64,000 nt of DNA from Escherichia coli (GTDB taxonomy: Bacteria; Pseudomonadota; Gammaproteobacteria; Enterobacterales; Enterobacteriaceae). Under the pieces are notes generated by a model. The model did no database searches. It worked only from the letters and a program-made list of their open reading frames with translations, and had not been told where the DNA came from. Location of the stretch: assembly GCF_003790525.1 (NCBI RefSeq), contig NZ_CP033635.1; one strand, 5' to 3'. Position numbers and translations under genes: made by a program. This document shows positions 6,869 through 62,958 of this stretch, in pieces (position 1 is the first letter of the stretch; every line of letters begins with the position of its first letter).

Positions 6869-7372
6869 TTATTGATAGTGTTTTATGTTCAGATAATGCC
6901 CGATGACTTTGTCATGCAGCTCCACCGATTTTGAGAACGACAGCGACTTCCGTCCCAGCCGTGCCAGGTGCTGCCTCAGATTCAGGTTATGCCGCTCAAT
7001 TCGCTGCGTATATCGCTTGCTGATTACGTGCAGCTTTCCCTTCAGGCGGGATTCATACAGCGGCCAGCCATCCGTCATCCATATCACCACGTCAAAGGGT
7101 GACAGCAGGCTCATAAGACGCCCCAGCGTCGCCATCGTGCGTTCACCGAATACGTGCGCAACAACCGTCTTCCGGAGCCTGTCATACGCGTAAAACAGCC
7201 AGCGCTGGCGCGATTTAGCCCCGACATAGCCCCACTGTTCGTCCATTTCCGCACAGACGATGACGTCACTGCCCGGCTGTATGCGCGAGGTTACCGACTG
7301 CGGCCTGAGTTTTTTAAGTGACGTAAAATCGTGTTGAGGCCAACGCCCATAATGCGGGCTGTTGCCCGGCAT
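6869..7372 (-). CDS. insB: IS1 InsB (catalytic part; InsAB' is made by -1 frameshifting)
   Basis: 167-aa ORF matching IS1 InsB; overlaps insA in the -1 frame as in canonical IS1. Confidence 0.9.
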
Positions 7373-7566
7373 CCAACGCCATTCATGGCCATATCAATGA
7401 TTTTCTGGTGCGTACCGGGTTGAGAAGCGGTGTAAGTGAACTGCAGTTGCCATGTTTTACGGCAGTGAGAGCAGAGATAGCGCTGATGTCCGGCGGTGCT
7501 TTTGCCGTTACGCACCACCCCGTCAGTAGCTGAACAGGAGGGACAGCTGATAGAAACAGAAGCCAC
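7291..7566 (-). CDS. insA: IS1 InsA (transposition repressor / N-terminal part of the transposase)
   Basis: 91-aa [42 protein letters not shown]… is the IS1 InsA sequence. Confidence 0.92.
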
Positions 7567-7621
7567 TGGAGCACCTCAAAAACACCATCATATACTAAAT
7601 CAGTAAGTTGGCAGCATCACC

Positions 7622-7629
7622 AAAAAATA
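7622..7629. repeat. IS1 target-site duplication, right copy (aaaaaata)
   Basis: Same 8-bp sequence directly flanks both IS1 ends. Confidence 0.6.
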
Positions 7630-8142
7630 CACCATACAACAGCAAAATGAATATTGATCTGTTGATTAAGCATAAGACTCGCTATTGGAGTGGTGAACCA
7701 TAAGGGAATGACAAATGCGAGCAATGATGGGGTATGGAAATAAAGTGCGATAACGCCACTAAGCATTAATAATACACATAGTGGATAAGCAAACTGCAGC
7801 GTCCAGTACGCAATAAAGTGATAACTACACCATGACCATAGCAGGCTCAGGGCAACTAATAGCACCTGGATAGGTAATGTTTTTTGCCGAGGGATGAGTA
7901 GTAAACCACTGCAAATCAGCAGAATACCCGTTGCAGATATATCAATAGAATGTATAAGGCTTTTTTCATTTAACCAGGGTGGAGTAAGGTCATTAAACAG
8001 AACACGGCGCAGCAAAATTATCAATGCAAAACTGACATTGATAAAAGCAAACCATGGCAAACTAATCGTCATGCCGCGAATAACCATATCGCGGCGGGTT
8101 TTCCATGAGTGATGCGTTTTTCTTCGTTCAGCCATTTTTTAA

Positions 8143-8167
8143 CCAAAAAAGGGCAGGATACCTGCCC
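8143..8167 (-). terminator. Rho-independent terminator after the alkyl-sulfatase gene
   Basis: Stem gggcagg-ata-cctgccc followed on the minus strand by a T-run (plus-strand aaaaaa at 8145-8150). Confidence 0.5.
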
Positions 8168-8181
8168 GGTATGCAGTAAAT

Positions 8182-10158
8182 TTATGGTGTCACTATATTG
8201 AACCAAAATTCAAAATTATCCATATAACCTAACAGCTCGTTGAGTTTTTCCGCATTGCCAGTAATTTTGACATCTTCTTTGGCCGTGGCTTCTTTCAGCG
8301 TCTCTTCTTTCAGTACAATTTTGTTCAATACATCACGAGACAGAGTGATAGTGGCATCAGCATCCGAAGCCTCTACACCAGCGGTATGATTGAGAACACC
8401 ATTTTCAAGCTCCACTTTATAGGTGCCGCCATCTTCACCAAAATCGAAATTCAACACGGTTTTGGCATCTGCCGCTTTCTCACCATTAATATGGACGGCA
8501 AGATAATCAAAGAACATCTCCGGCGTCATCGCACGCACGGTGTCTGGGCTGGCAGTATTTGGTGTTGGTAATTTTTGTACGCCATTACGCAATTCCTGTG
8601 CGCCAGTGAGATAGAAATTACGCCACGGCCCAGATTCAGCCTGATAGCCTAACTGCTCAAGCGCATCAGCTTCCAGATTTCTCGCTGCCTGGTTGTTTGG
8701 ATCGGTAAACACCACCTTACTAACAACTTGGGCAACCCAGCGGAAATTACCCTGGTCATAATCCTGTTTGGCTTTCTGTAAAATGGCATCAGCACCGCCC
8801 ATATACTCGACGAATTTTTTTGCGCCTTCTTCTGGCGGCAGTTCATCAAGCGTCGCGGGGTTACCATCAAACCAGCCGAGATAAAGCACGTAAGTTGCTT
8901 TCACGTCATGACTTACCGAACCGTAATAGCCGCGATTCGCCCAGGTATTAGCCAGTGAAGAGGGCAGTTTAAAGTTTGCGGCAATTTCATCACGGGTCAT
9001 CCCTTGATTTGCCATACGCAGAGTTTGATCATTGATGTAACGATACAAATCACGCTGGCTTTTAAGCAGTTTGACCACGTTATCGTTGCCCCAGGTTGGC
9101 CAGTGATGTTGAGCGAGAATAATCTCGGCTTTATCTCCCCATAAATTGAGAGCTTCGTTAATATATTTTGACCACGGCAGCGGTTGGCGAATTTTAGCCC
9201 CACGCAGCGAATAGGTGTTATGAAGGGTGTGCGTGACATCTTCAGCGGTTTCGATCAGTTTCTTTTCTTCAATAAACCACAGCATTTCAGAAGGCGCTTC
9301 AGAGCCTGGCGCCATCAAGAAATCATAGGTCAACCCGTCAATAGTTTCTTTTTGTCCGGTTTTGGTGATGTAGTTAGTAGGAGCAATCAACGTGACCGTT
9401 CCTGCTGAAGTGGTTGTTCCCAGTCCCGCGCCAACCTGGCCTTTAACATCAGGTTTCAATAAGTTGCCATACATATAACTGGCTCGTCGGCTCATCACAT
9501 TGCCAGCCATAATATTTTCGGAAACGGCTTCCTCCAAAAATCCGGCTGGCGCGTAGATTTTAACTTTGCCTGATTTAACGTCAGCTTCATCAATTACGCC
9601 GCGAACACCACCGTAGTGATCGACATGACTGTGTGTGTAGATAACCGCTACTACCGGTTTTTTGTCGCGATTTTTGTAATAGAGATCCATACCCACTTTG
9701 GCTGTTTCTGCTGAAACAAGGGGATCAACGATGGTAATACCCTCTTTGCCTTCAATGATGGTCATATTTGATAGATCGAGATTGCGAATCTGATAGACAC
9801 CTTCAGTTACTTCGAATAACCCGCTGATATTTATCAGTTGCGCCTGACGCCATAAACTTGGATTCACCGTATCAGGGGCTTTATCACCTTCTTTAATAAA
9901 AGCGTATTGTTGTGGATCCCAGATAACATTTCCTTTTTCGCCCTTAATCACGTCTTGAGGGATAGGGGCAACAAAACCTTTATGGGCATCAGTAAAGTCA
10001 GTGTTATCAGAAAACGGCAACTGGTTGTAGAGTAAATTGTTTGCTTGTTGCGTGGCTGCGGTGGCGTCTTTAGGGGCTTCCGCCGCGAGGAGTGGCAAAG
10101 AACTGGTGGTGAATAATCCCGTTATTAGCAGACTTTTAACAATATGATTAAGCTGCAT
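8182..10158 (-). CDS. Secreted metallo-beta-lactamase-fold alkyl/aryl sulfatase (SdsA1/YjcS-like)
   Basis: 658-aa ORF with Sec signal peptide, MBL metal-binding motif (…YTHSHVDHYGG…), then dimerisation and SCP2-like C-terminal regions typical of type III alkylsulfatases. Confidence 0.8.
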   Translation of the reverse strand: MQLNHIVKSLLITGLFTTSSLPLLAAEAPKDATAATQQANNLLYNQLPFSDNTDFTDAHKGFVAPIPQDVIKGEKGNVIWDPQQYAFIKEGDKAPDTVNPSLWRQAQLINISGLFEVTEGVYQIRNLDLSNMTIIEGKEGITIVDPLVSAETAKVGMDLYYKNRDKKPVVAVIYTHSHVDHYGGVRGVIDEADVKSGKVKIYAPAGFLEEAVSENIMAGNVMSRRASYMYGNLLKPDVKGQVGAGLGTTTSAGTVTLIAPTNYITKTGQKETIDGLTYDFLMAPGSEAPSEMLWFIEEKKLIETAEDVTHTLHNTYSLRGAKIRQPLPWSKYINEALNLWGDKAEIILAQHHWPTWGNDNVVKLLKSQRDLYRYINDQTLRMANQGMTRDEIAANFKLPSSLANTWANRGYYGSVSHDVKATYVLYLGWFDGNPATLDELPPEEGAKKFVEYMGGADAILQKAKQDYDQGNFRWVAQVVSKVVFTDPNNQAARNLEADALEQLGYQAESGPWRNFYLTGAQELRNGVQKLPTPNTASPDTVRAMTPEMFFDYLAVHINGEKAADAKTVLNFDFGEDGGTYKVELENGVLNHTAGVEASDADATITLSRDVLNKIVLKEETLKEATAKEDVKITGNAEKLNELLGYMDNFEFWFNIVTP

Positions 10159-56928: not shown

Positions 56929-58614
56929 TTATAAAACCGCGCTAATGTCACAAATATCATCGGCCAGGTTCCAGACACCGGGTTGATGTGTAACCATAAT
57001 GACGCCGCTTGTGGGGAGTTTTTCTCGCACTAAACGCAGTAAGCGGATTGCCTCTTGTTCCTCAAGATGAGAGGTAGTTTCGTCAAGAAATATCCATTTC
57101 GGACGTCGTAAAATTAATCGAGCCAGGGCGATACGTTGTTTTTCGCCGCTGGAAAGAATATCTCCCCAGCGATCGTGGTCATGAATACGCGTAGCCAATT
57201 TCCCCAGCCCAACCTGATGCAGTACTTCACTCAACGATTTATCGTCTACGGACAGGGGAAGTGCTTTACAAATAATCTCTTTCAGTAAGCCGGTTTTGAT
57301 TAACGGTGTTTGTGACACATACCAACTGTCAGCAGGAGAAGAAATATCACCTTTAAACCACGGCCAGCAGTGGGATAATGTTTTAAGCAGTGTGGTTTTT
57401 CCCGTACCAGAGTAACCTTTCAGCAATAGCCATTTGCCTGGCAAAACATGAAAGTTCAGGTTCTCTAATATGATCTTATTATCAGGAGTACGAATACTCG
57501 CGTCAGCCACTTGTACCGCATGTTGGCAATTTTTAGGCTTATTCGTAGGGCGCTGTTCGGTGAGTTGATGGAACTCAGACAAGCGATCGATAACCGCAGC
57601 CAGTACAGCAAGTTCATCATATTTATAAATAAACCAGCTTAAATTGTTCGATACCAGCATAAATGCCTGGCGCGATTTCATCAGTCCGCCCAGATTGATC
57701 TGTCCGCTAATAAACTGCGGCAATAACAGAAAGTAGGGAAGAACGCTAAGCGAGCGCGAATAAATATTCTGCCAGTAATCAAGCCACCGCTGACGATTCA
57801 TTAAACGATGCCAGTTCTCTTTAATGGTATGAAAATTTTCGCTCAACTCCTGGCGTTGTAGAGACTCAGCATTGCTTAGCGCAATCAGTTCTGCCTGCTT
57901 ATTATGCTGCACAAGATTAGTTCGAAATGTCGCTTCGCTACGTTGTTTTTCCACATTAAGCGGACGAATACGTTTACCAACCTTATGGGTAAATAAAGTT
58001 CCACCGATCACAATGAGCACGACGGTATAGACCATATACCCCTGGATATTCCATTCAGTTCCACCAACAGTGAATGAGAGCGTACCCGCGCTTTGCCAAA
58101 GAATAACGGTAAAGGTGATCAGCATGCTAAGTGACTGGATGAAGCCAAATGAAAGACTGAGCGTTTTGCTGATCAGTAAGAGAATGTCTTCAGCGATACG
58201 TTGGTCAGGGTTATCTGTATTTTTATGCTCGCCGTAGATCTGCGTGAAGTAGTAGTTTTTATCTGCAAACCAGCGATTAAGGTAGTAATCTGTTAACCAT
58301 TCGCGCCAGCGAATAGTCAGTAGTTTAATTAACCATGTTTTGTTTACGGATATTAATACAAAGATCCCCAGCAGGGCAGGGAACCAAAGGACAAGCTGCC
58401 AAAGCTTATCAGTTTCTTTCTGGCTTAGCGCATTGAAAAAATCATTATTCCAGTCGTTTAACCAGACCTGAATTTTAACCACGCCAAGGATCATGGCGAG
58501 GATAATAATGATTAACAACACTGAAGTTTTATTATTCTTACGCAGCCAAAAGGGCTTCAGCAGACAGAGATACTTTGCTATCAACATACAAAACGTAATG
58601 GGAATGGTTATCAT
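56929..58614 (-). CDS. yddA: ABC transporter, fused permease/ATPase (SbmA/BacA-like N-terminal domain)
   Basis: 561-aa ORF: N-terminal TM domain plus C-terminal ABC ATPase (GYSGTGKTT Walker A; LSSGEKQR signature). Confidence 0.88.
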   Translation of the reverse strand: MITIPITFCMLIAKYLCLLKPFWLRKNNKTSVLLIIIILAMILGVVKIQVWLNDWNNDFFNALSQKETDKLWQLVLWFPALLGIFVLISVNKTWLIKLLTIRWREWLTDYYLNRWFADKNYYFTQIYGEHKNTDNPDQRIAEDILLLISKTLSLSFGFIQSLSMLITFTVILWQSAGTLSFTVGGTEWNIQGYMVYTVVLIVIGGTLFTHKVGKRIRPLNVEKQRSEATFRTNLVQHNKQAELIALSNAESLQRQELSENFHTIKENWHRLMNRQRWLDYWQNIYSRSLSVLPYFLLLPQFISGQINLGGLMKSRQAFMLVSNNLSWFIYKYDELAVLAAVIDRLSEFHQLTEQRPTNKPKNCQHAVQVADASIRTPDNKIILENLNFHVLPGKWLLLKGYSGTGKTTLLKTLSHCWPWFKGDISSPADSWYVSQTPLIKTGLLKEIICKALPLSVDDKSLSEVLHQVGLGKLATRIHDHDRWGDILSSGEKQRIALARLILRRPKWIFLDETTSHLEEQEAIRLLRLVREKLPTSGVIMVTHQPGVWNLADDICDISAVL

Positions 58615-58904
58615 TAGCGAAAATTTATTGTGCCATCCAATGATTATCTATGGCAATGATATACTGATGAAATTTATTTAAGTATCATTTAACAATATGA
58701 AATATAAAGAAATATTTTATTTTCAGTGGTTATGGTTATGCTATTGATAATCAAGGGTATTGCTAATGCCCTGACGCATACCTCGTAAGCCAGGATTTTC
58801 GCAAAGGAAGATGATGAAGACGAAACACCCGACAGGAATTTATGTCGGGTGCCTTGTTAAGGTCATAAGAAGGAGGCTAAGAATGGAGCTAAGGGGGAGC
58901 GTTA

Positions 58905-60062
58905 TTAATTATTCTCCATTTGTTTTGCAACATCCATAATGTGGTAAAGCGGTACTCTGTTCTTAGCTAACTCCACCATGGCGTTCATATAAGGTACCAT
59001 GGTTGAAAAAAGGATTTTATAACCTTCGCAAAAATAGGAAACAGTCTCATTGTTTACTTTAGTAATACGATGCTTAGGGCAACCACCATTGCAGATAGGT
59101 TTATATGCACATTGCTGACATTTCGCTGAAATCCGTTTTTTTTGCGCTGTCAGTTGAACACTGTTCATCGTTTTGAGTTCAGATTTATTAATGTTTCCAA
59201 TTTTGTACTGTGGATAGACAAAATGGTCGCATTCGTAAATGTCTCCATTACTTTCAACAACCAGATTATCCTTGCAGGACGCCTGGAAAATACAACTGGT
59301 ATGCCCATTCCCCAAAAAACGGCTGACAAAGCTTTCAAACTGACGGATGAAAATTTCACCCACATCGTTTTTAACCCATTGCATAAAAATGGTTGACATA
59401 AACTTGCCATAAGCCGTAGGAGGCACAGAAAAATCAATGATACGGAATGTGTTCTCACTATGACCACTGAAATCAATATTCGGCGTCCCGGTTTCGAGCA
59501 ATTCGATAAATTGCATATGTTTACTGCCGATAGATTTTAAAAAATGATAAACCTCAAGAGGGTAATGGACATTAACGTTATTAATGACGGTTAACGTATT
59601 AAACTCTACTTGATATGATTTCAGACGCTCGATGGCTGCTATCACTTTTGCAAAAGTACCGTTACCTGAATTACTGCGTCTGTAACGGTCATGTAGCTCC
59701 TGGGGTCCATCGATCGAGATACCAACCAGAAACTCATGTTCTTTGAGAAAGGCACACCATTCATTATTCAATAAAATGCCATTCGTTTGTAATGCATTAA
59801 AAATACGTTTTTGGCCTGCATAGCGTTGTTGATAGTGAATAACTTTACGGAAAAAATCCAGGCCAGCCAGAGTGGGTTCACCGCCTTGCCAGGTAAAATA
59901 GACCTGATTGCCAGACGCTGCGATATATTGTTTGATGAACTCTTTCAGAGTGCTGTCATCCATCCATTTTTCATGAGTAAACTGCGACTCTTTTTCAAGG
60001 TAAAAACAGTAATCACATTTGAGATTACATTGAAAACTGGAGGGCTTGGCTGTAACGTGCAT
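58905..60062 (-). CDS. ydeM: Radical-SAM anaerobic sulfatase-maturating enzyme homologue
   Basis: 385-aa product from [19 protein letters not shown]… (CxxxCxxC radical-SAM motif) with C-terminal auxiliary Cys clusters. Confidence 0.88.
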
Positions 60063-60113
60063 CGCTATCTCGCTCAATAAGGCGGCGGAAAAATCCGCCG
60101 CATGAAGGTTTAG

Positions 60114-61796
60114 TTATTTCGCTTCGCTTAGTGCTTTCTTGATATTGTTAAACTTCTCCTGATTTACCTCGCTAAGTGGTGGTTGGCTGCTGTCGATAAA
60201 CTCTCTTACCACGCCTTGCATCTCTTTAACGACCTGCGGATTGGCGGCGGCAAGGTTATCTTTTTGCTGTAGATCCGTCAGTTTGTATAGACCTAACTGA
60301 TTGTTTTCTACTGTATAGACAAGCGAATAATCGTTATTTCTTACCGTATAAGAGAATTGGCTTAAATCCTCGGTGTTGGGGTTATGCGGGTAATCGTCTG
60401 ACTGATGGCGGACAAATTTGTGGTAATTATCCCAGAATGGAATATTTTCCTCGTCAAACCAGTGAGAATAAGAGGTTATCCAGGTCAGATTTTTATGTGG
60501 CTCGCCTTGTTTCTTATCTTGCAACCACGGCAGCAAGGAAACGCCATCCAGCTTAAGGTCTTTTGGAATGCTGATATCGGCTGCATCAAGAGCTGTCGGG
60601 TAGAAATCCATTGCGGAAATCAGCTTGTCATAATTACCGGGTTGAAGTTTTCCTTTCCACCACATAAACATTGGGGTGTGAGTACCGCCAGGATAGGTCT
60701 GACTCTTATAGCCTTTTTGCGCCCCGTTCAGCGGCAGAGGACCATCGATAACCGCACCATTATCGGAGGTAAAGAGAATAATAGTATTGTCATACTGTCC
60801 GTTTTTCTTCAGTTGTTCGAGAATGCGTTTTACACCCTGATCAACAGAATAAACGGAAGCGTAGTAGTTATCTGCTGTTTGACTACCGGTATTAAATTGC
60901 TTCTGATATTGCTCCGGTGCAGGATTATCATTTGGCAGGTGCGGAGCATTATAAGCCAGGTAAAGCATAAAAGGCTGGTCAAGTGTTTTGGCACGATCAA
61001 CAACGCCAATTGCCTCATCGGTTAACTGATCGCTGATATAACCTTTTGCGGGGACGCGTTCACGGTTTTTGAACAGTGAAGGGGAGTTGTAATATGCCGT
61101 TCCTGCAGCGTGGAATCCCATAAAGTAATCAAAGCCACGGTTTTGAGGTTGCCATTCTTCCGCAGAAAATGTGGTGAAGTTGTCATGATAGTCACGCGTT
61201 TGTTTATCTTCCGGTACCGGCACATTACTGATTTTTGACAAGTGCCATTTACCTACTGCTGCAGTGTAATAACCATGATTCTGGAATAATTCAGGCAAGA
61301 AAGTTTCTGTTAGCGGAATACCATCCTGAGCATCGGTATTGGAATAGACACCAAAGCGGGCGGGCGCTCGACCGGTCATTATTGCAGCGCGGGAGGGGCC
61401 GGAAACACCGTGCGCCACATAGCCGTTAGTAAAACGCACGCCTTCATCCATTAATGAAAGGAGCGTCGGCGTTGATTTTTGCGCAGCTTCAATGGCTTTA
61501 TCTATCCCTATTTTGTAGGTATCGACAACTTCACGATTTTCCATTGTTTTTGGGTCAAAAGATCCCTTATCAAAAGGAAGTTGTCCATAACCAAGATCAT
61601 CCATGGTCAGTACGATAATATTTGGCTTTCCTTTGGTACTGTATTCAGTCGGCGTAAAGTCTGAGAAAGCAACGTTTGTTTTGGTTGCTTTCAGCTTTAC
61701 ATCATCTGCCGCATGAGCAGCAAATGCAGCCATACCAGATGCCAGTATCAAAGATATCGAGGTACTTACGACACTTTTCTTTAATGCAGACTTCAT
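60114..61796 (-). CDS. ydeN: Secreted Ser-type sulfatase
   Basis: 560-aa product from MKSALKKSVVSTSI… (signal peptide); sulfatase signature S-x-P-x-R present (…HGVSGPSRAAIMTGR…). Confidence 0.88.
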   Translation of the reverse strand: MKSALKKSVVSTSISLILASGMAAFAAHAADDVKLKATKTNVAFSDFTPTEYSTKGKPNIIVLTMDDLGYGQLPFDKGSFDPKTMENREVVDTYKIGIDKAIEAAQKSTPTLLSLMDEGVRFTNGYVAHGVSGPSRAAIMTGRAPARFGVYSNTDAQDGIPLTETFLPELFQNHGYYTAAVGKWHLSKISNVPVPEDKQTRDYHDNFTTFSAEEWQPQNRGFDYFMGFHAAGTAYYNSPSLFKNRERVPAKGYISDQLTDEAIGVVDRAKTLDQPFMLYLAYNAPHLPNDNPAPEQYQKQFNTGSQTADNYYASVYSVDQGVKRILEQLKKNGQYDNTIILFTSDNGAVIDGPLPLNGAQKGYKSQTYPGGTHTPMFMWWKGKLQPGNYDKLISAMDFYPTALDAADISIPKDLKLDGVSLLPWLQDKKQGEPHKNLTWITSYSHWFDEENIPFWDNYHKFVRHQSDDYPHNPNTEDLSQFSYTVRNNDYSLVYTVENNQLGLYKLTDLQQKDNLAAANPQVVKEMQGVVREFIDSSQPPLSEVNQEKFNNIKKALSEAK

Positions 61797-62196
61797 AAAT
61801 GTTCCTCTTCTTATTGTACTTAATTCCAAAGTAATTTTACGAAGAGAAATAAGTGGATGTAAGTGAAGTGAGTCACATAAAGAGATAGCAGATTTAGCTA
61901 AAAAAGGGAAATAACAGTCCATAAAGCGTTGACATTACTTTCTGTTCTACTAAGTAATTTCTCGCCGATAAACAACTAATCTATTGATATTTAATAAATT
62001 ATTGCATTTTAATGACAAAATGCCGAATTGAGATCATAAATAATCATGCAACAGGTTATGCAAATGCATAAATATGTGATGAATGTCACTTATTTATTTC
62101 AAGAAATATATCGCCTAAAAACAACGCGGGGCAGGAAATGGCTGCCCCATTTAATTCTTACGTAGCGTGTGTGGTTGACTACTCGTTAGCAAATAA

Positions 62197-62958
62197 TCAA
62201 ATAGCTAAAGCACTCATCGTGTTGTCCGTGTTCATACCGGTGTGCCTTTGACAACGGTACTCCTTCGAAACTCTCTTCGGACTGTTGCCGAAATGTTTGC
62301 GGAACGCATAAATAAAATAAGATGTACTCGCATAACCACATTGTTCGGCAATTTTATTGACTGAACCTTCTACGCGTATCAAATTTTTTGCGTGCTGCAT
62401 TCTGGCATCTAAAAGAATCTGTGAGAATGTCGTTTGCTCTTGCTTTAGTTTTTTCTTCAACAGGCTTTCACTGATGTACAGGCAGTCACAAATATCTTTC
62501 AGCTTCCATGGGTGCGCCAGCTTCATGTTGACAATATTTCTCACTTTCCCGGAAACGGATAGCACACCGTTAGTTAATAGTGTAATGAAACCTTTGCATG
62601 CGGCAAAAATAGACAGGCAAGAAAAAAGCAAAAGTTCTGAAAAGTTATGATGATTGCGTTCTTCCGAGTTGAGATAAGCAATCATTTCATTAAGCAATCC
62701 CGTCGGTACATTTGAAGCACGTAAAAACTTCGCAGGAACAGGCACCGTCACTGTCTGGATGTTAGTGCATTGTAGATATTTTTTAATGGTGTTTTCATTA
62801 AATCCGATTTCTTTGAAATGCCGCTCATAAGGTTCAAAATGCGTACGAACAGCGTTATCTACCATCAGGATCTCGCCGTCAGAGAAGGCGTAATCTTTAT
62901 CTAAAATGTTAGCGTTGAAGGCATGATGAATAAATATAACAGAACAAACGAGCGACAT
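62197..62958 (-). CDS. ydeO: AraC-family acid-resistance regulator
   Basis: 253-aa ORF with C-terminal AraC HTH; upstream neighbour safA. Confidence 0.9.
   Translation of the reverse strand: MSLVCSVIFIHHAFNANILDKDYAFSDGEILMVDNAVRTHFEPYERHFKEIGFNENTIKKYLQCTNIQTVTVPVPAKFLRASNVPTGLLNEMIAYLNSEERNHHNFSELLLFSCLSIFAACKGFITLLTNGVLSVSGKVRNIVNMKLAHPWKLKDICDCLYISESLLKKKLKQEQTTFSQILLDARMQHAKNLIRVEGSVNKIAEQCGYASTSYFIYAFRKHFGNSPKRVSKEYRCQRHTGMNTDNTMSALAI

Follow-up and report, generated by a model that had tools for sequence, protein, structure and literature searches.

The genes ydeN and ydeM pose a compact question: does a sulfatase that depends on an oxidised serine stand here next to the enzyme that would activate it, and, if so, on what might it act? 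Within the stretch of Escherichia coli DNA analysed (64,000 nucleotides of contig NZ_CP033635.1, hereafter the window), the two genes lie on the minus strand and together fill positions 58905-61796 in both the ORF list and RefSeq, with the ydeN ATG starting at 61796 and the ydeM stop codon ending at 58905 (Table 1). They constitute an already annotated operon, whose families and structure are known from RefSeq and the literature: RefSeq names ydeM "anaerobic sulfatase maturase" and ydeN "sulfatase-like hydrolase/transferase", both genes are identical to the annotated pair of E. coli SMS-3-5, and later papers credit the sulfatase/maturase assignment to earlier work that they cite (Schirmer and Kolter, 1998; Berteau, 2006; Benjdia, 2007). 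The literature nonetheless still describes YdeN as a "putative sulfatase" whose substrates are unreported. From the sequence analysis, and by analogy with characterised systems, the two genes very probably make up an operon in which ydeN encodes a serine-type sulfatase of the periplasm and ydeM the cytoplasmic enzyme dedicated to activating it. As a discovery this matters little, and sequence analysis yields modest leads only. Regarding gene boundaries, the mechanical ORF for ydeM begins at a TTG (60077, 390 aa) and the RefSeq gene at an ATG (60062, 385 aa); we favour the latter because RefSeq calls it and because the alignment to the curated anSME family TIGR03942 begins at residue 7 of the TTG ORF.

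Table 1. Positions in the window of the ydeN-ydeM operon, its main predicted features and the second sulfatase gene.
Feature	Position	Strand	Evidence
Secreted MBL-fold (class III) alkyl/aryl sulfatase, 658 aa, HSHVDH zinc motif	8182..10158	-	PF00753, PF14863, PF14864, PDB matches
Terminator-like hairpin ~50 nt past the ydeM stop, then UUUCGUCUUC	58823..58854	-	Fold -22.1 kcal/mol, z -4.1
ydeM CDS, radical-SAM/SPASM anaerobic sulfatase-maturating enzyme (predicted), 385 aa	58905..60062	-	TIGR03942, PF04055, PF13186, 4K36
SPASM region of YdeM: C257, C263, C278, C315, C318, C324, C328, C345 and Asp279	59028..59294	-	Alignment to anSMEcpe
Radical-SAM motif C12-x3-C16-x2-C19 of YdeM (CNLKCDYC, residues 12-19)	60006..60029	-	Aligns to anSMEcpe C15, C19, C22
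Intercistronic GC-rich hairpin GCGGCGGAtttttCCGCCGC, between ydeN and ydeM	60082..60101	-	Fold -21 kcal/mol, z -2.5
ydeN CDS, Ser-type S1 (formylglycine-dependent) sulfatase (predicted), 560 aa	60114..61796	-	ORF, RefSeq, PF00884, ARSA residue mapping
Extended sulfatase signature SGPSRAAIMTGR, 12 residues, Ser132 the predicted formylglycine precursor	61368..61403	-	Sequence, alignment to ARSA C69
YdeN residues 68-107, loop after the DD metal motif with clade-specific ~26-residue insertion relative to ARSA and S1_19 structures	61476..61595	-	HMMER split, spacing
Predicted Sec-type signal peptide MKSALKKSVVSTSISLILASGMAAFAAHA, A-H-A cleavage site, no twin-arginine	61710..61796	-	Read from sequence
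ydeN upstream region, from the ydeO terminator (62127-62149) to the ydeN start; Shine-Dalgarno AAGAGGA	61797..62126	-	Sequence, scans

YdeN matches the sulfatase family PF00884 over the entire profile (positions 1-301 of 301; 1.3e-70; 238.6 bits, cut-off 25), and 88 PDB sulfatases match it at E <= 1e-3, while none of the named sulfatase equivalogs in NCBIfam is reached (best 124 bits, cut-off 481). A preliminary description of this DNA had pointed to an S-x-P-x-R sulfatase signature and to serine as the source of the catalytic formylglycine, and both claims hold. The SGPSR motif spans residues 132-136 (61389-61403) within SGPSRAAIMTGR and aligns, as S132-G-P-S-R136, to C69-T-P-S-R73 of human arylsulfatase A (ARSA; the reference being the PDB ARSA chains from residue 19 on, except the C69A of 1E2S). 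Because YdeN contains no cysteine at all, formylglycine, if made, can only derive from Ser132, and 118 of the 120 nearest homologs share SxPxR, 58 homologs having TA-R instead of TG-R at the end of the signature. The remainder of the active site maps equally well (D29/D30 to D66/D67, C69 to S132, R73 to R136, K123/H125 to K183/H185, H229 to H286, D281/N282 to D345/N346, and K302 to K364), all ten aligned ARSA catalytic positions being identical save for Ser in place of C69, and D66, D67, R136, K183, H185, H286, D345, N346 and K364 are the same in five orthologs. YdeN thus keeps every canonical ARSA catalytic residue, the point at which the preliminary description had proposed that its reading be checked. 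By its sequence YdeN is a Ser-type sulfatase with predicted Sec export to the periplasm, the signal peptide cleavage site having been placed by the -3/-1 rule. A peculiarity of the clade is the loop that follows the DD motif, where the HMMER alignment breaks and the spacing to the TP motif widens from 17 residues in ARSA to 43 in YdeN; many of its columns are invariant across orthologs. An AlphaFold2 model of YdeN computed from 15 aligned sequences (70-84% identity) averaged a pLDDT of 51, too poor for active-site geometry, and was discarded.

Were Ser132 itself the nucleophile, on the pattern of the phosphatases, phosphodiesterases and transferases of the alkaline-phosphatase superfamily, YdeN could instead hydrolyse phospho- or phosphono-esters or act as a transferase, with YdeM modifying some other target. 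The cautious RefSeq name allows for this, as do secondary matches to Pfam Phosphodiest (1.3e-7) and, weakly, to PehA, LtaS and YejM in NCBIfam. A direct serine nucleophile would, however, leave unexplained the complete 12-residue formylglycine signature found throughout the clade, the conserved sulfate-binding residues K183, H185, H286 and K364, and the presence directly downstream, in four genera, of a genuine anSME gene; moreover, the nearest solved relatives of YdeN are all true S1 sulfatases. We regard this alternative as highly improbable and continue with YdeN as a formylglycine-dependent enzyme.

The preliminary description had also called the adjacent ydeM product anSME-like on account of a CxxxCxxC motif, and this is amply borne out. 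YdeM scores 504.3 bits against TIGR03942 (cut-off 349.45) over model positions 1-362 of 363, carries the Pfam domains PF04055 and, at 3.2e-6, PF13186 (SPASM), and has as its top solved homolog the Clostridium perfringens enzyme anSMEcpe (4K36; E 2e-63, residues 4-359). Beyond the three radical-SAM cysteines, anSMEcpe C255, C261, C276, C317, C320, C326, C330 and C348 correspond in order to the eight SPASM cysteines of YdeM, and the catalytic D277 to D279; after the 4K36 structure, we take these cysteines to group as C257/C263/C278/C328 and C315/C318/C324/C345. With all eight auxiliary cysteines retained, the second check that the preliminary description had proposed does not refute it either. 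All 11 cluster cysteines are invariant in orthologs of 53-66% identity, and the SPASM cysteines and Asp279 across four genera. The GGE SAM-binding motif (G60-G61-E62) likewise aligns to anSMEcpe and is invariant in orthologs, and CFY and GGEP motifs are shared with 4K36. Taken alone such short motifs are weak, since [CS]xPxR arises by chance in 5.6% of YdeN shuffles and CxxxCxxC in 0.9% of YdeM shuffles; what makes them meaningful is their placement within full-length family alignments (PF00884, TIGR03942, 4K36).

Enzymes of the SPASM type also mature ribosomally synthesised peptides (RiPPs), and YdeM could be conceived as one of these, for instance a DynA- or DarE-like cyclophane-forming enzyme, given its sub-threshold matches to DynA (219 bits), DarW, DarE, YhhB and other SPASM maturases. 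Yet those scores fall far under cut-offs of 450-650 bits, whereas the TIGR03942 cut-off is exceeded by 155 bits; no small precursor-peptide gene is annotated adjacent, the conserved partner is always the sulfatase, and among solved structures the closest homolog is anSMEcpe. On the NCBIfam cut-offs we dropped this identity, whose probability we consider minimal. YdeM is an anSME-family radical-SAM/SPASM enzyme with a predicted capacity for Ser/Cys oxidation.

How the two proteins might work together we infer from Klebsiella AtsA/AtsB and Clostridium anSMEcpe: the reaction itself, its timing ahead of export and the role of YdeM as the enzyme acting on YdeN are all drawn from these relatives. 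As a radical-SAM/SPASM enzyme carrying three [4Fe-4S] clusters, YdeM would grip the not-yet-folded YdeN precursor at S132-G-P-S-R, and SAM would be reductively cleaved at the C12/C16/C19 cluster, yielding a 5'-deoxyadenosyl radical that would take the C-beta hydrogen of Ser132. The hydroxyl proton would pass to Asp279 and the electron would leave via the two auxiliary clusters, the product being C-alpha-formylglycine formed independently of O2. The modified precursor would then be exported via Sec by its N-terminal AHA signal peptide, and in the periplasm the hydrated formylglycine would attack a sulfate ester, with a divalent metal coordinated by D66, D67, D345 and N346 and with R136, K183, H185, H286 and K364 assisting. 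The Ser-type Klebsiella AtsA requires co-expression of AtsB when produced in E. coli, and deletions of aslB and ydeM are reportedly without effect on the maturation of Cys-type sulfatases in E. coli; these results would imply that chromosomal ydeM is either silent under laboratory conditions or specific for YdeN.

A hairpin separates the two cistrons, and hairpins of other sequence occur at the analogous spot in three further genera; an Rfam scan of 58500-62300 gave a sole match, to isrK at this hairpin, which is sub-threshold (20 bits, gathering cut-off 50) and was read as chance. The hairpin beyond ydeM, the probable end of the operon, folds more stably than any of 200 shuffles. A scan for consensus terminators returned that of ydeO alone; the hairpins that follow ydeN and ydeM do not satisfy its T-run rule. 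Promoter-like matches upstream of ydeN are weak and not above chance level. The pair is present in 5373 of 5426 complete E. coli genomes (99%), at 95-100% identity, and a sulfatase gene followed on the same strand by a radical-SAM gene, after a gap of 57-222 nt, recurs in Aeromonas, Anaerobiospirillum and Yersinia, where the flanking genes differ.

Might the E. coli operon nevertheless be cryptic or a functionally decaying relic, its genes intact yet in effect silent, so that no active sulfatase arises in nature? The chance-level promoter matches would agree with this, as would a literature that reports no YdeN activity or substrate, and to our knowledge E. coli K-12 displays no arylsulfatase activity in the laboratory. 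Decay is, however, hard to reconcile with two open reading frames that are intact and so widely and closely conserved within the species, or with catalytic and cluster residues that are all conserved across genera. The transcript, moreover, is regulated: ydeM shares its transcript with ydeN, AraC acts on ydeN directly, and loss of araC leads to high ydeMN expression (PMC10878103); AraC binds upstream of ydeN with arabinose only (PMC3738151); an azo dye induces the ydeN/ydeM transcript; and by ribosome profiling ydeN is among the genes most strongly down-regulated at pH 4.4, with a 5-log2 drop (PMC10746267). The protein, too, has been seen by proteomics, in anaerobically grown O157 (PMC3936929). 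A relic appears improbable. The published AraC site was not located by our scans: tandem half-sites at 21-bp spacing were not found upstream of ydeN, and the half-site consensus with 3 mismatches matches 437 times in the whole window against 425 expected, which is uninformative.

Two broader statements in the preliminary description stand in part. It had placed the pair in an acid-resistance neighbourhood, and the neighbours named by RefSeq in the window (gadB, pqqL, yddB, yddA, ydeO, safA and ydeP) agree; but the repression of ydeN at pH 4.4 and its control by AraC mean that this location is no proof of co-regulation, and the link is positional only. It had also singled out a second sulfatase system at 8182-10158, an MBL-fold alkyl sulfatase, which is confirmed by three domains, Lactamase_B (PF00753), Alkyl_sulf_dimr (PF14863, 2.2e-62) and Alkyl_sulf_C (PF14864, 1.4e-44), and by matches to PDB 7TL5, 4NUR, 4PDX (YjcS), 2YHE and 2CFU (SdsA1), Pisa1 being among the enzymes matched, with E from 0 to 5e-186 (YjcS 5e-211, SdsA1 5e-186). 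Like SdsA1, Pisa1 and YjcS, with which it shares the three domains and the HxHxDH motif, this enzyme needs no formylglycine, and as a class III sulfatase it is unlike ydeNM in fold, mechanism and distribution. The two systems are mechanistically distinct and make up no functional cluster: the alkyl sulfatase gene is accessory, occurring in 527 of 5426 E. coli genomes (~10%, as against 99% for ydeNM), so its nearness is incidental and a functional link was rejected.

As to substrate, the best guess from sequence is a sulfated sugar, for the closest solved relatives of YdeN are S1_19 carrageenan (galactose-4-sulfate) sulfatases (9HH2/9HH3, 6BIA, 6B0J/6B0K; E 3e-52 to 3e-50, residues 109-436). 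By subfamily, PDB matches reach 175-181 bits for S1_19, 150 for S1_7 and 138 for S1_16, which is nearest-PDB evidence and not a SulfAtlas assignment; the literature suggests instead a likeness to the GlcNAc-6-sulfatase BT4656. The core signature xGPSRxAIxTGR is identical between YdeN and the carrageenan enzymes, but the latter are marine and Cys-type (CGPSR in wild-type 9HH3 and in 6BIA), whereas YdeN is Ser-type, and they do not have its ~26-residue insertion. A fuller picture, tentative and on balance unlikely, would make YdeN a galactose/GalNAc-4-O-sulfate carbohydrate sulfatase with YdeM strictly cognate, serving enterobacteria in the periplasmic desulfation of host (mucin, chondroitin) or dietary glycans when arabinose is absent; the insertion would then shape the pocket for the substrate, while the hairpin between the cistrons would set the sulfatase:maturase ratio. 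Proof of formylglycine made by YdeM at Ser132, together with a gut substrate for YdeN, would fill a gap in the annotation of E. coli "y-genes", and the substrate could bear on how Enterobacteriaceae forage on mucin or dietary glycans.

Among known systems, AtsA/AtsB of Klebsiella pneumoniae, the prototype of a Ser-type sulfatase served by a radical-SAM maturase, resembles ydeNM in combining an S1 sulfatase of the periplasm, whose (C/S)xPxR motif has Ser, and an adjacent, co-oriented radical-SAM/SPASM maturase with three cysteine clusters, and there cytoplasmic maturation precedes Sec export. The order in ydeNM is sulfatase, then maturase; AtsA is an arylsulfatase induced by sulfate starvation, whereas the activity of YdeN is putative only, and, in the comparison with AtsB, it is sequence that places YdeM in TIGR03942. 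With anSMEcpe (PDB 4K36-4K39) YdeM shares the radical-SAM cysteines, the eight auxiliary cysteines, Asp277 (D279), GGEP and Tyr24 (Y21), but its Cys103, invariant in the clade, is absent from the clostridial enzyme. The natural substrate of anSMEcpe is a Cys-type sulfatase, although Ser is also oxidised in vitro, and the presumed substrate of YdeM differs in being Ser-type. Within E. coli itself, AslA/AslB and YidJ belong to the same S1 family and are encoded at other chromosomal loci, outside the window, and aslAB, as far as the earlier studies are related in papers that cite them, likewise pairs a sulfatase with an anSME (Schirmer and Kolter, 1998; Benjdia, 2007).

The ydeN-ydeM pair is already known, and its presence in this strain is confirmed; its outer limits (58905-61796) were placed exactly in the preliminary description, as the RefSeq annotation of the two genes shows, and its interpretation as a sulfatase with its maturase is supported. 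Over these 2892 bases the window matches E. coli SMS-3-5 (NC_010498.1, 1669613-1672504) at 100% identity; of 5426 complete E. coli genomes, 5373 contain a matching stretch, almost always with 95-100% identity. Both genes are longer in a mechanical ORF list, with ydeN opening at 61922 (ATG) and ydeM at 60077 (TTG); the RefSeq starts are favoured over these versions, since an AAGAGGA Shine-Dalgarno sequence precedes the ydeN start at 61796, the signal peptide begins at that Met, and the alignment to the anaerobic sulfatase-maturating enzyme (anSME) model TIGR03942 begins at residue 7 of the longer ydeM ORF. A RefSeq call for a 41-aa protein overlapping the final 35 nt of ydeM and the hairpin beyond is probably spurious. 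In SMS-3-5, an IS3-family element adjoins the truncated fimbrial gene ydeR just past the window's right end.

YdeN belongs to the sulfatase family (Pfam PF00884, 1.3e-70, profile positions 1-301 of 301), and SGPSR forms residues 132-136 within the full signature SGPSRAAIMTGR. A bare [CS]xPxR arises in 5.6% of YdeN shuffles, so that SGPSR gains significance only through where it falls. Its placement was tested in an alignment of human arylsulfatase A (ARSA) with YdeN and five of its orthologs; from residue 19 onwards the ARSA sequence used agrees with the PDB ARSA chains at every position, C69A in 1E2S being the sole exception. All canonical ARSA catalytic residues are identical in YdeN, except for Ser in place of Cys. 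YdeN as a whole contains no cysteine, and Ser132 would therefore be the only possible source of formylglycine, as had been proposed from the SGPSR signature. The same Ser-type signature occurs in 118 of the 120 closest homologs (all at least 70% identical), from Leminorella, Salmonella, Citrobacter, Yersinia, Proteus, Aeromonas, Shewanella, Iodobacter and Anaerobiospirillum. At the N-terminus, MKSALKKSVVSTSISLILASGMAAFAAHA resembles a Sec signal and has no twin-arginine motif. Neither formylglycine in YdeN nor any YdeN activity has been reported in the literature. Several database "proteins" in which YdeN is fused to AraC-type HTH (YdeO-like) or molybdopterin (YdeP-like) domains (P0001, P0003, P0008, P0013, P0015) are single-contig calls in automated assemblies and appear to be artefacts of gene calling, not genuine fusions.

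The radical-SAM, anSME-like nature attributed to ydeM from its CxxxCxxC motif is borne out by its Radical_SAM and SPASM domains (Pfam) and by the curated anSME equivalog TIGR03942, whose cut-off of 349.45 bits YdeM exceeds with a score of 504.3. Aligned residue by residue with the Clostridium perfringens enzyme of known structure (anSMEcpe, PDB 4K36; E 2e-63), YdeM shows the three radical-SAM cysteines and all eight auxiliary Fe-S cysteines, and these 11 are invariant in Aeromonas, Anaerobiospirillum and Yersinia orthologs at 53-66% identity. Neither of the two losses named in the preliminary description as refuting its reading, of catalytic residues in YdeN or of auxiliary-cluster cysteines in YdeM, is seen. 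A role as a RiPP maturase was also considered and rejected, all such SPASM models (DynA, DarE/DarW, YhhB and others) scoring far under their own cut-offs.

Features and aligned residues of the sulfatase loci (window coordinates; L-prefixed loci lie outside the window and carry their own)
Feature	Position	Strand	Remark
ydeN	60114-61796	minus	560 aa; RefSeq "sulfatase-like hydrolase/transferase"
ydeM	58905-60062	minus	385 aa; RefSeq "anaerobic sulfatase maturase"
ydeO terminator	62127-62149		upstream of ydeN
Intercistronic hairpin	60082-60101	minus	20 nt, GC-rich, stable; just after ydeN stop, before ydeM
Terminator-like hairpin	58823-58854		strong, U-rich tail; downstream of ydeM
RefSeq "hypothetical protein"	58814-58939	plus	41 aa
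YdeN insertion	61476-61595	minus	residues 68-107
YdeM C103 codon	59754-59756	minus	
Accessory insert	7000-10158		between yncG and pptA
GGDEF-domain gene	about 7038-8087		adjoins MBL-fold sulfatase gene
MBL-fold sulfatase gene	8182-10158		
IS3-family element, ydeR	L001:16290-18005		SMS-3-5
Hairpins in Aeromonas, Yersinia, Anaerobiospirillum	L002:5696-5722, L008:5680-5706, L004:5833-5863		between sulfatase stop and maturase gene
YdeN-paralog region	L006:2615-5544, L011:5001-7930		outside window
Porin, Aeromonas veronii	L002:1156-2235		
Porin, E. coli paralog island	L006:2615-3751		
YdeN D66, D67			ARSA D29, D30
YdeN S132			ARSA C69
YdeN R136			ARSA R73
YdeN K183, H185			ARSA K123, H125
YdeN H286			ARSA H229
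YdeN D345, N346			ARSA D281, N282
YdeN K364			ARSA K302
YdeM C12, C16, C19			anSMEcpe radical-SAM C15, C19, C22
YdeM C257, C263, C278, C328			anSMEcpe auxiliary C255, C261, C276, C330
YdeM C315, C318, C324, C345			anSMEcpe auxiliary C317, C320, C326, C348
YdeM D279			anSMEcpe catalytic D277
YdeM GGEP			conserved anSMEcpe motif

In the three genera inspected (Aeromonas, Anaerobiospirillum and Yersinia), the radical-SAM gene follows the sulfatase gene by 57-222 nt on the same strand amid wholly different flanking genes, the pattern expected of a self-contained enzyme-plus-maturase module. The E. coli genes are co-transcribed, and ydeN is directly targeted by AraC, ydeMN being highly expressed in a ΔaraC strain (PMC10878103). 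The roughly 330 nt upstream of ydeN are AT-rich, with promoter matches at chance level only, and the hairpin with a U-rich tail downstream of ydeM is probably the transcript end. In the other three genera, stable GC-rich hairpins whose sequences differ stand at this same place between the two genes, which suggests that the one in E. coli may be a partial terminator or a 3'-end/mRNA stabiliser setting the sulfatase-to-maturase ratio; it would keep the sulfatase message more abundant than that of the maturase.

The preliminary description had also placed the pair in an acid-resistance neighbourhood. This holds for position, with gadB-pqqL-yddBA on one side and ydeO-safA-ydeP on the other, but not for regulation: ydeN is among the genes most strongly down-regulated at pH 4.4 (log2 -5.3; PMC10746267), and ydeNM is not co-regulated with these neighbours. 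Similarly, of the two distinct sulfatases noted in the window, the second is real, yet the two form no joint system. Judged from its sequence, the second is a genuine MBL-fold alkyl/aryl sulfatase of class III, with Lactamase_B, Alkyl_sulf_dimr and Alkyl_sulf_C domains, an HSHVDH motif, and matches to the structures of SdsA1, Pisa1 and YjcS (E 0 to 5e-186). Only about 10% of complete E. coli genomes (527 of 5426) carry its gene, which forms a small accessory insert with the GGDEF gene; that it lies ~50 kb from ydeNM, a core operon, is thus a strain-specific coincidence.

In 114 of the 5426 E. coli genomes there is another Ser-type sulfatase gene, whose product shares 77% identity with YdeN; 13 of the places where it occurs are on plasmids. 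IS elements surround it, and the island that holds it is close to Ag43 and a haem receptor. There is no YdeM homolog within 6 kb of it, and activation of this paralog would therefore fall to a maturase supplied in trans. It is preceded, 95 nt upstream and in the same orientation, by a porin gene; a porin gene (32% identity between the two porins, E 8e-60) also precedes the YdeN-type sulfatase in Aeromonas veronii, a recurrence hinting that the anionic substrate may have an outer-membrane entry route of its own.

What the sequence establishes is family membership, full sets of catalytic and cluster residues, a Ser-only site, a predicted export signal and a gene pairing conserved across genera; the steps that may link them are modelled on systems already characterised, AtsA/AtsB of Klebsiella and the anSME of C. 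perfringens. By this analogy, cytoplasmic YdeM would use radical-SAM chemistry to oxidise Ser132 of unfolded pre-YdeN to formylglycine, Sec would then export the modified protein, and periplasmic YdeN would act as a metal-dependent sulfate-ester hydrolase. Klebsiella AtsA made in E. coli requires its own AtsB. Benjdia et al. in 2007 reportedly found Cys-type maturation in E. coli unaffected by aslB and ydeM deletions. Towards the substrate of YdeN and the proposed Ser-to-formylglycine conversion, the analysis adds minor leads, namely an S1_19-like affinity, an insertion specific to the clade and the conserved hairpin between the two genes.

The nearest solved relatives of YdeN are the S1_19 carrageenan sulfatases 9HH2/9HH3, 6BIA and 6B0J (E 3e-52 to 3e-50), behind which ranks the GlcNAc-6-sulfatase BT4656 (5G2V; 3e-30), chosen as the comparison for YdeN in a recent paper. 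Immediately after the DD metal motif, YdeN carries an insertion of ~26 residues, conserved among orthologs, at which its HMMER alignments split and which adjoins the active site; neither human ARSA nor the S1_19 structures have it. YdeM in turn has a twelfth cysteine, C103, invariant in orthologs from four genera, whereas anSMEcpe has Ala at the aligned position.
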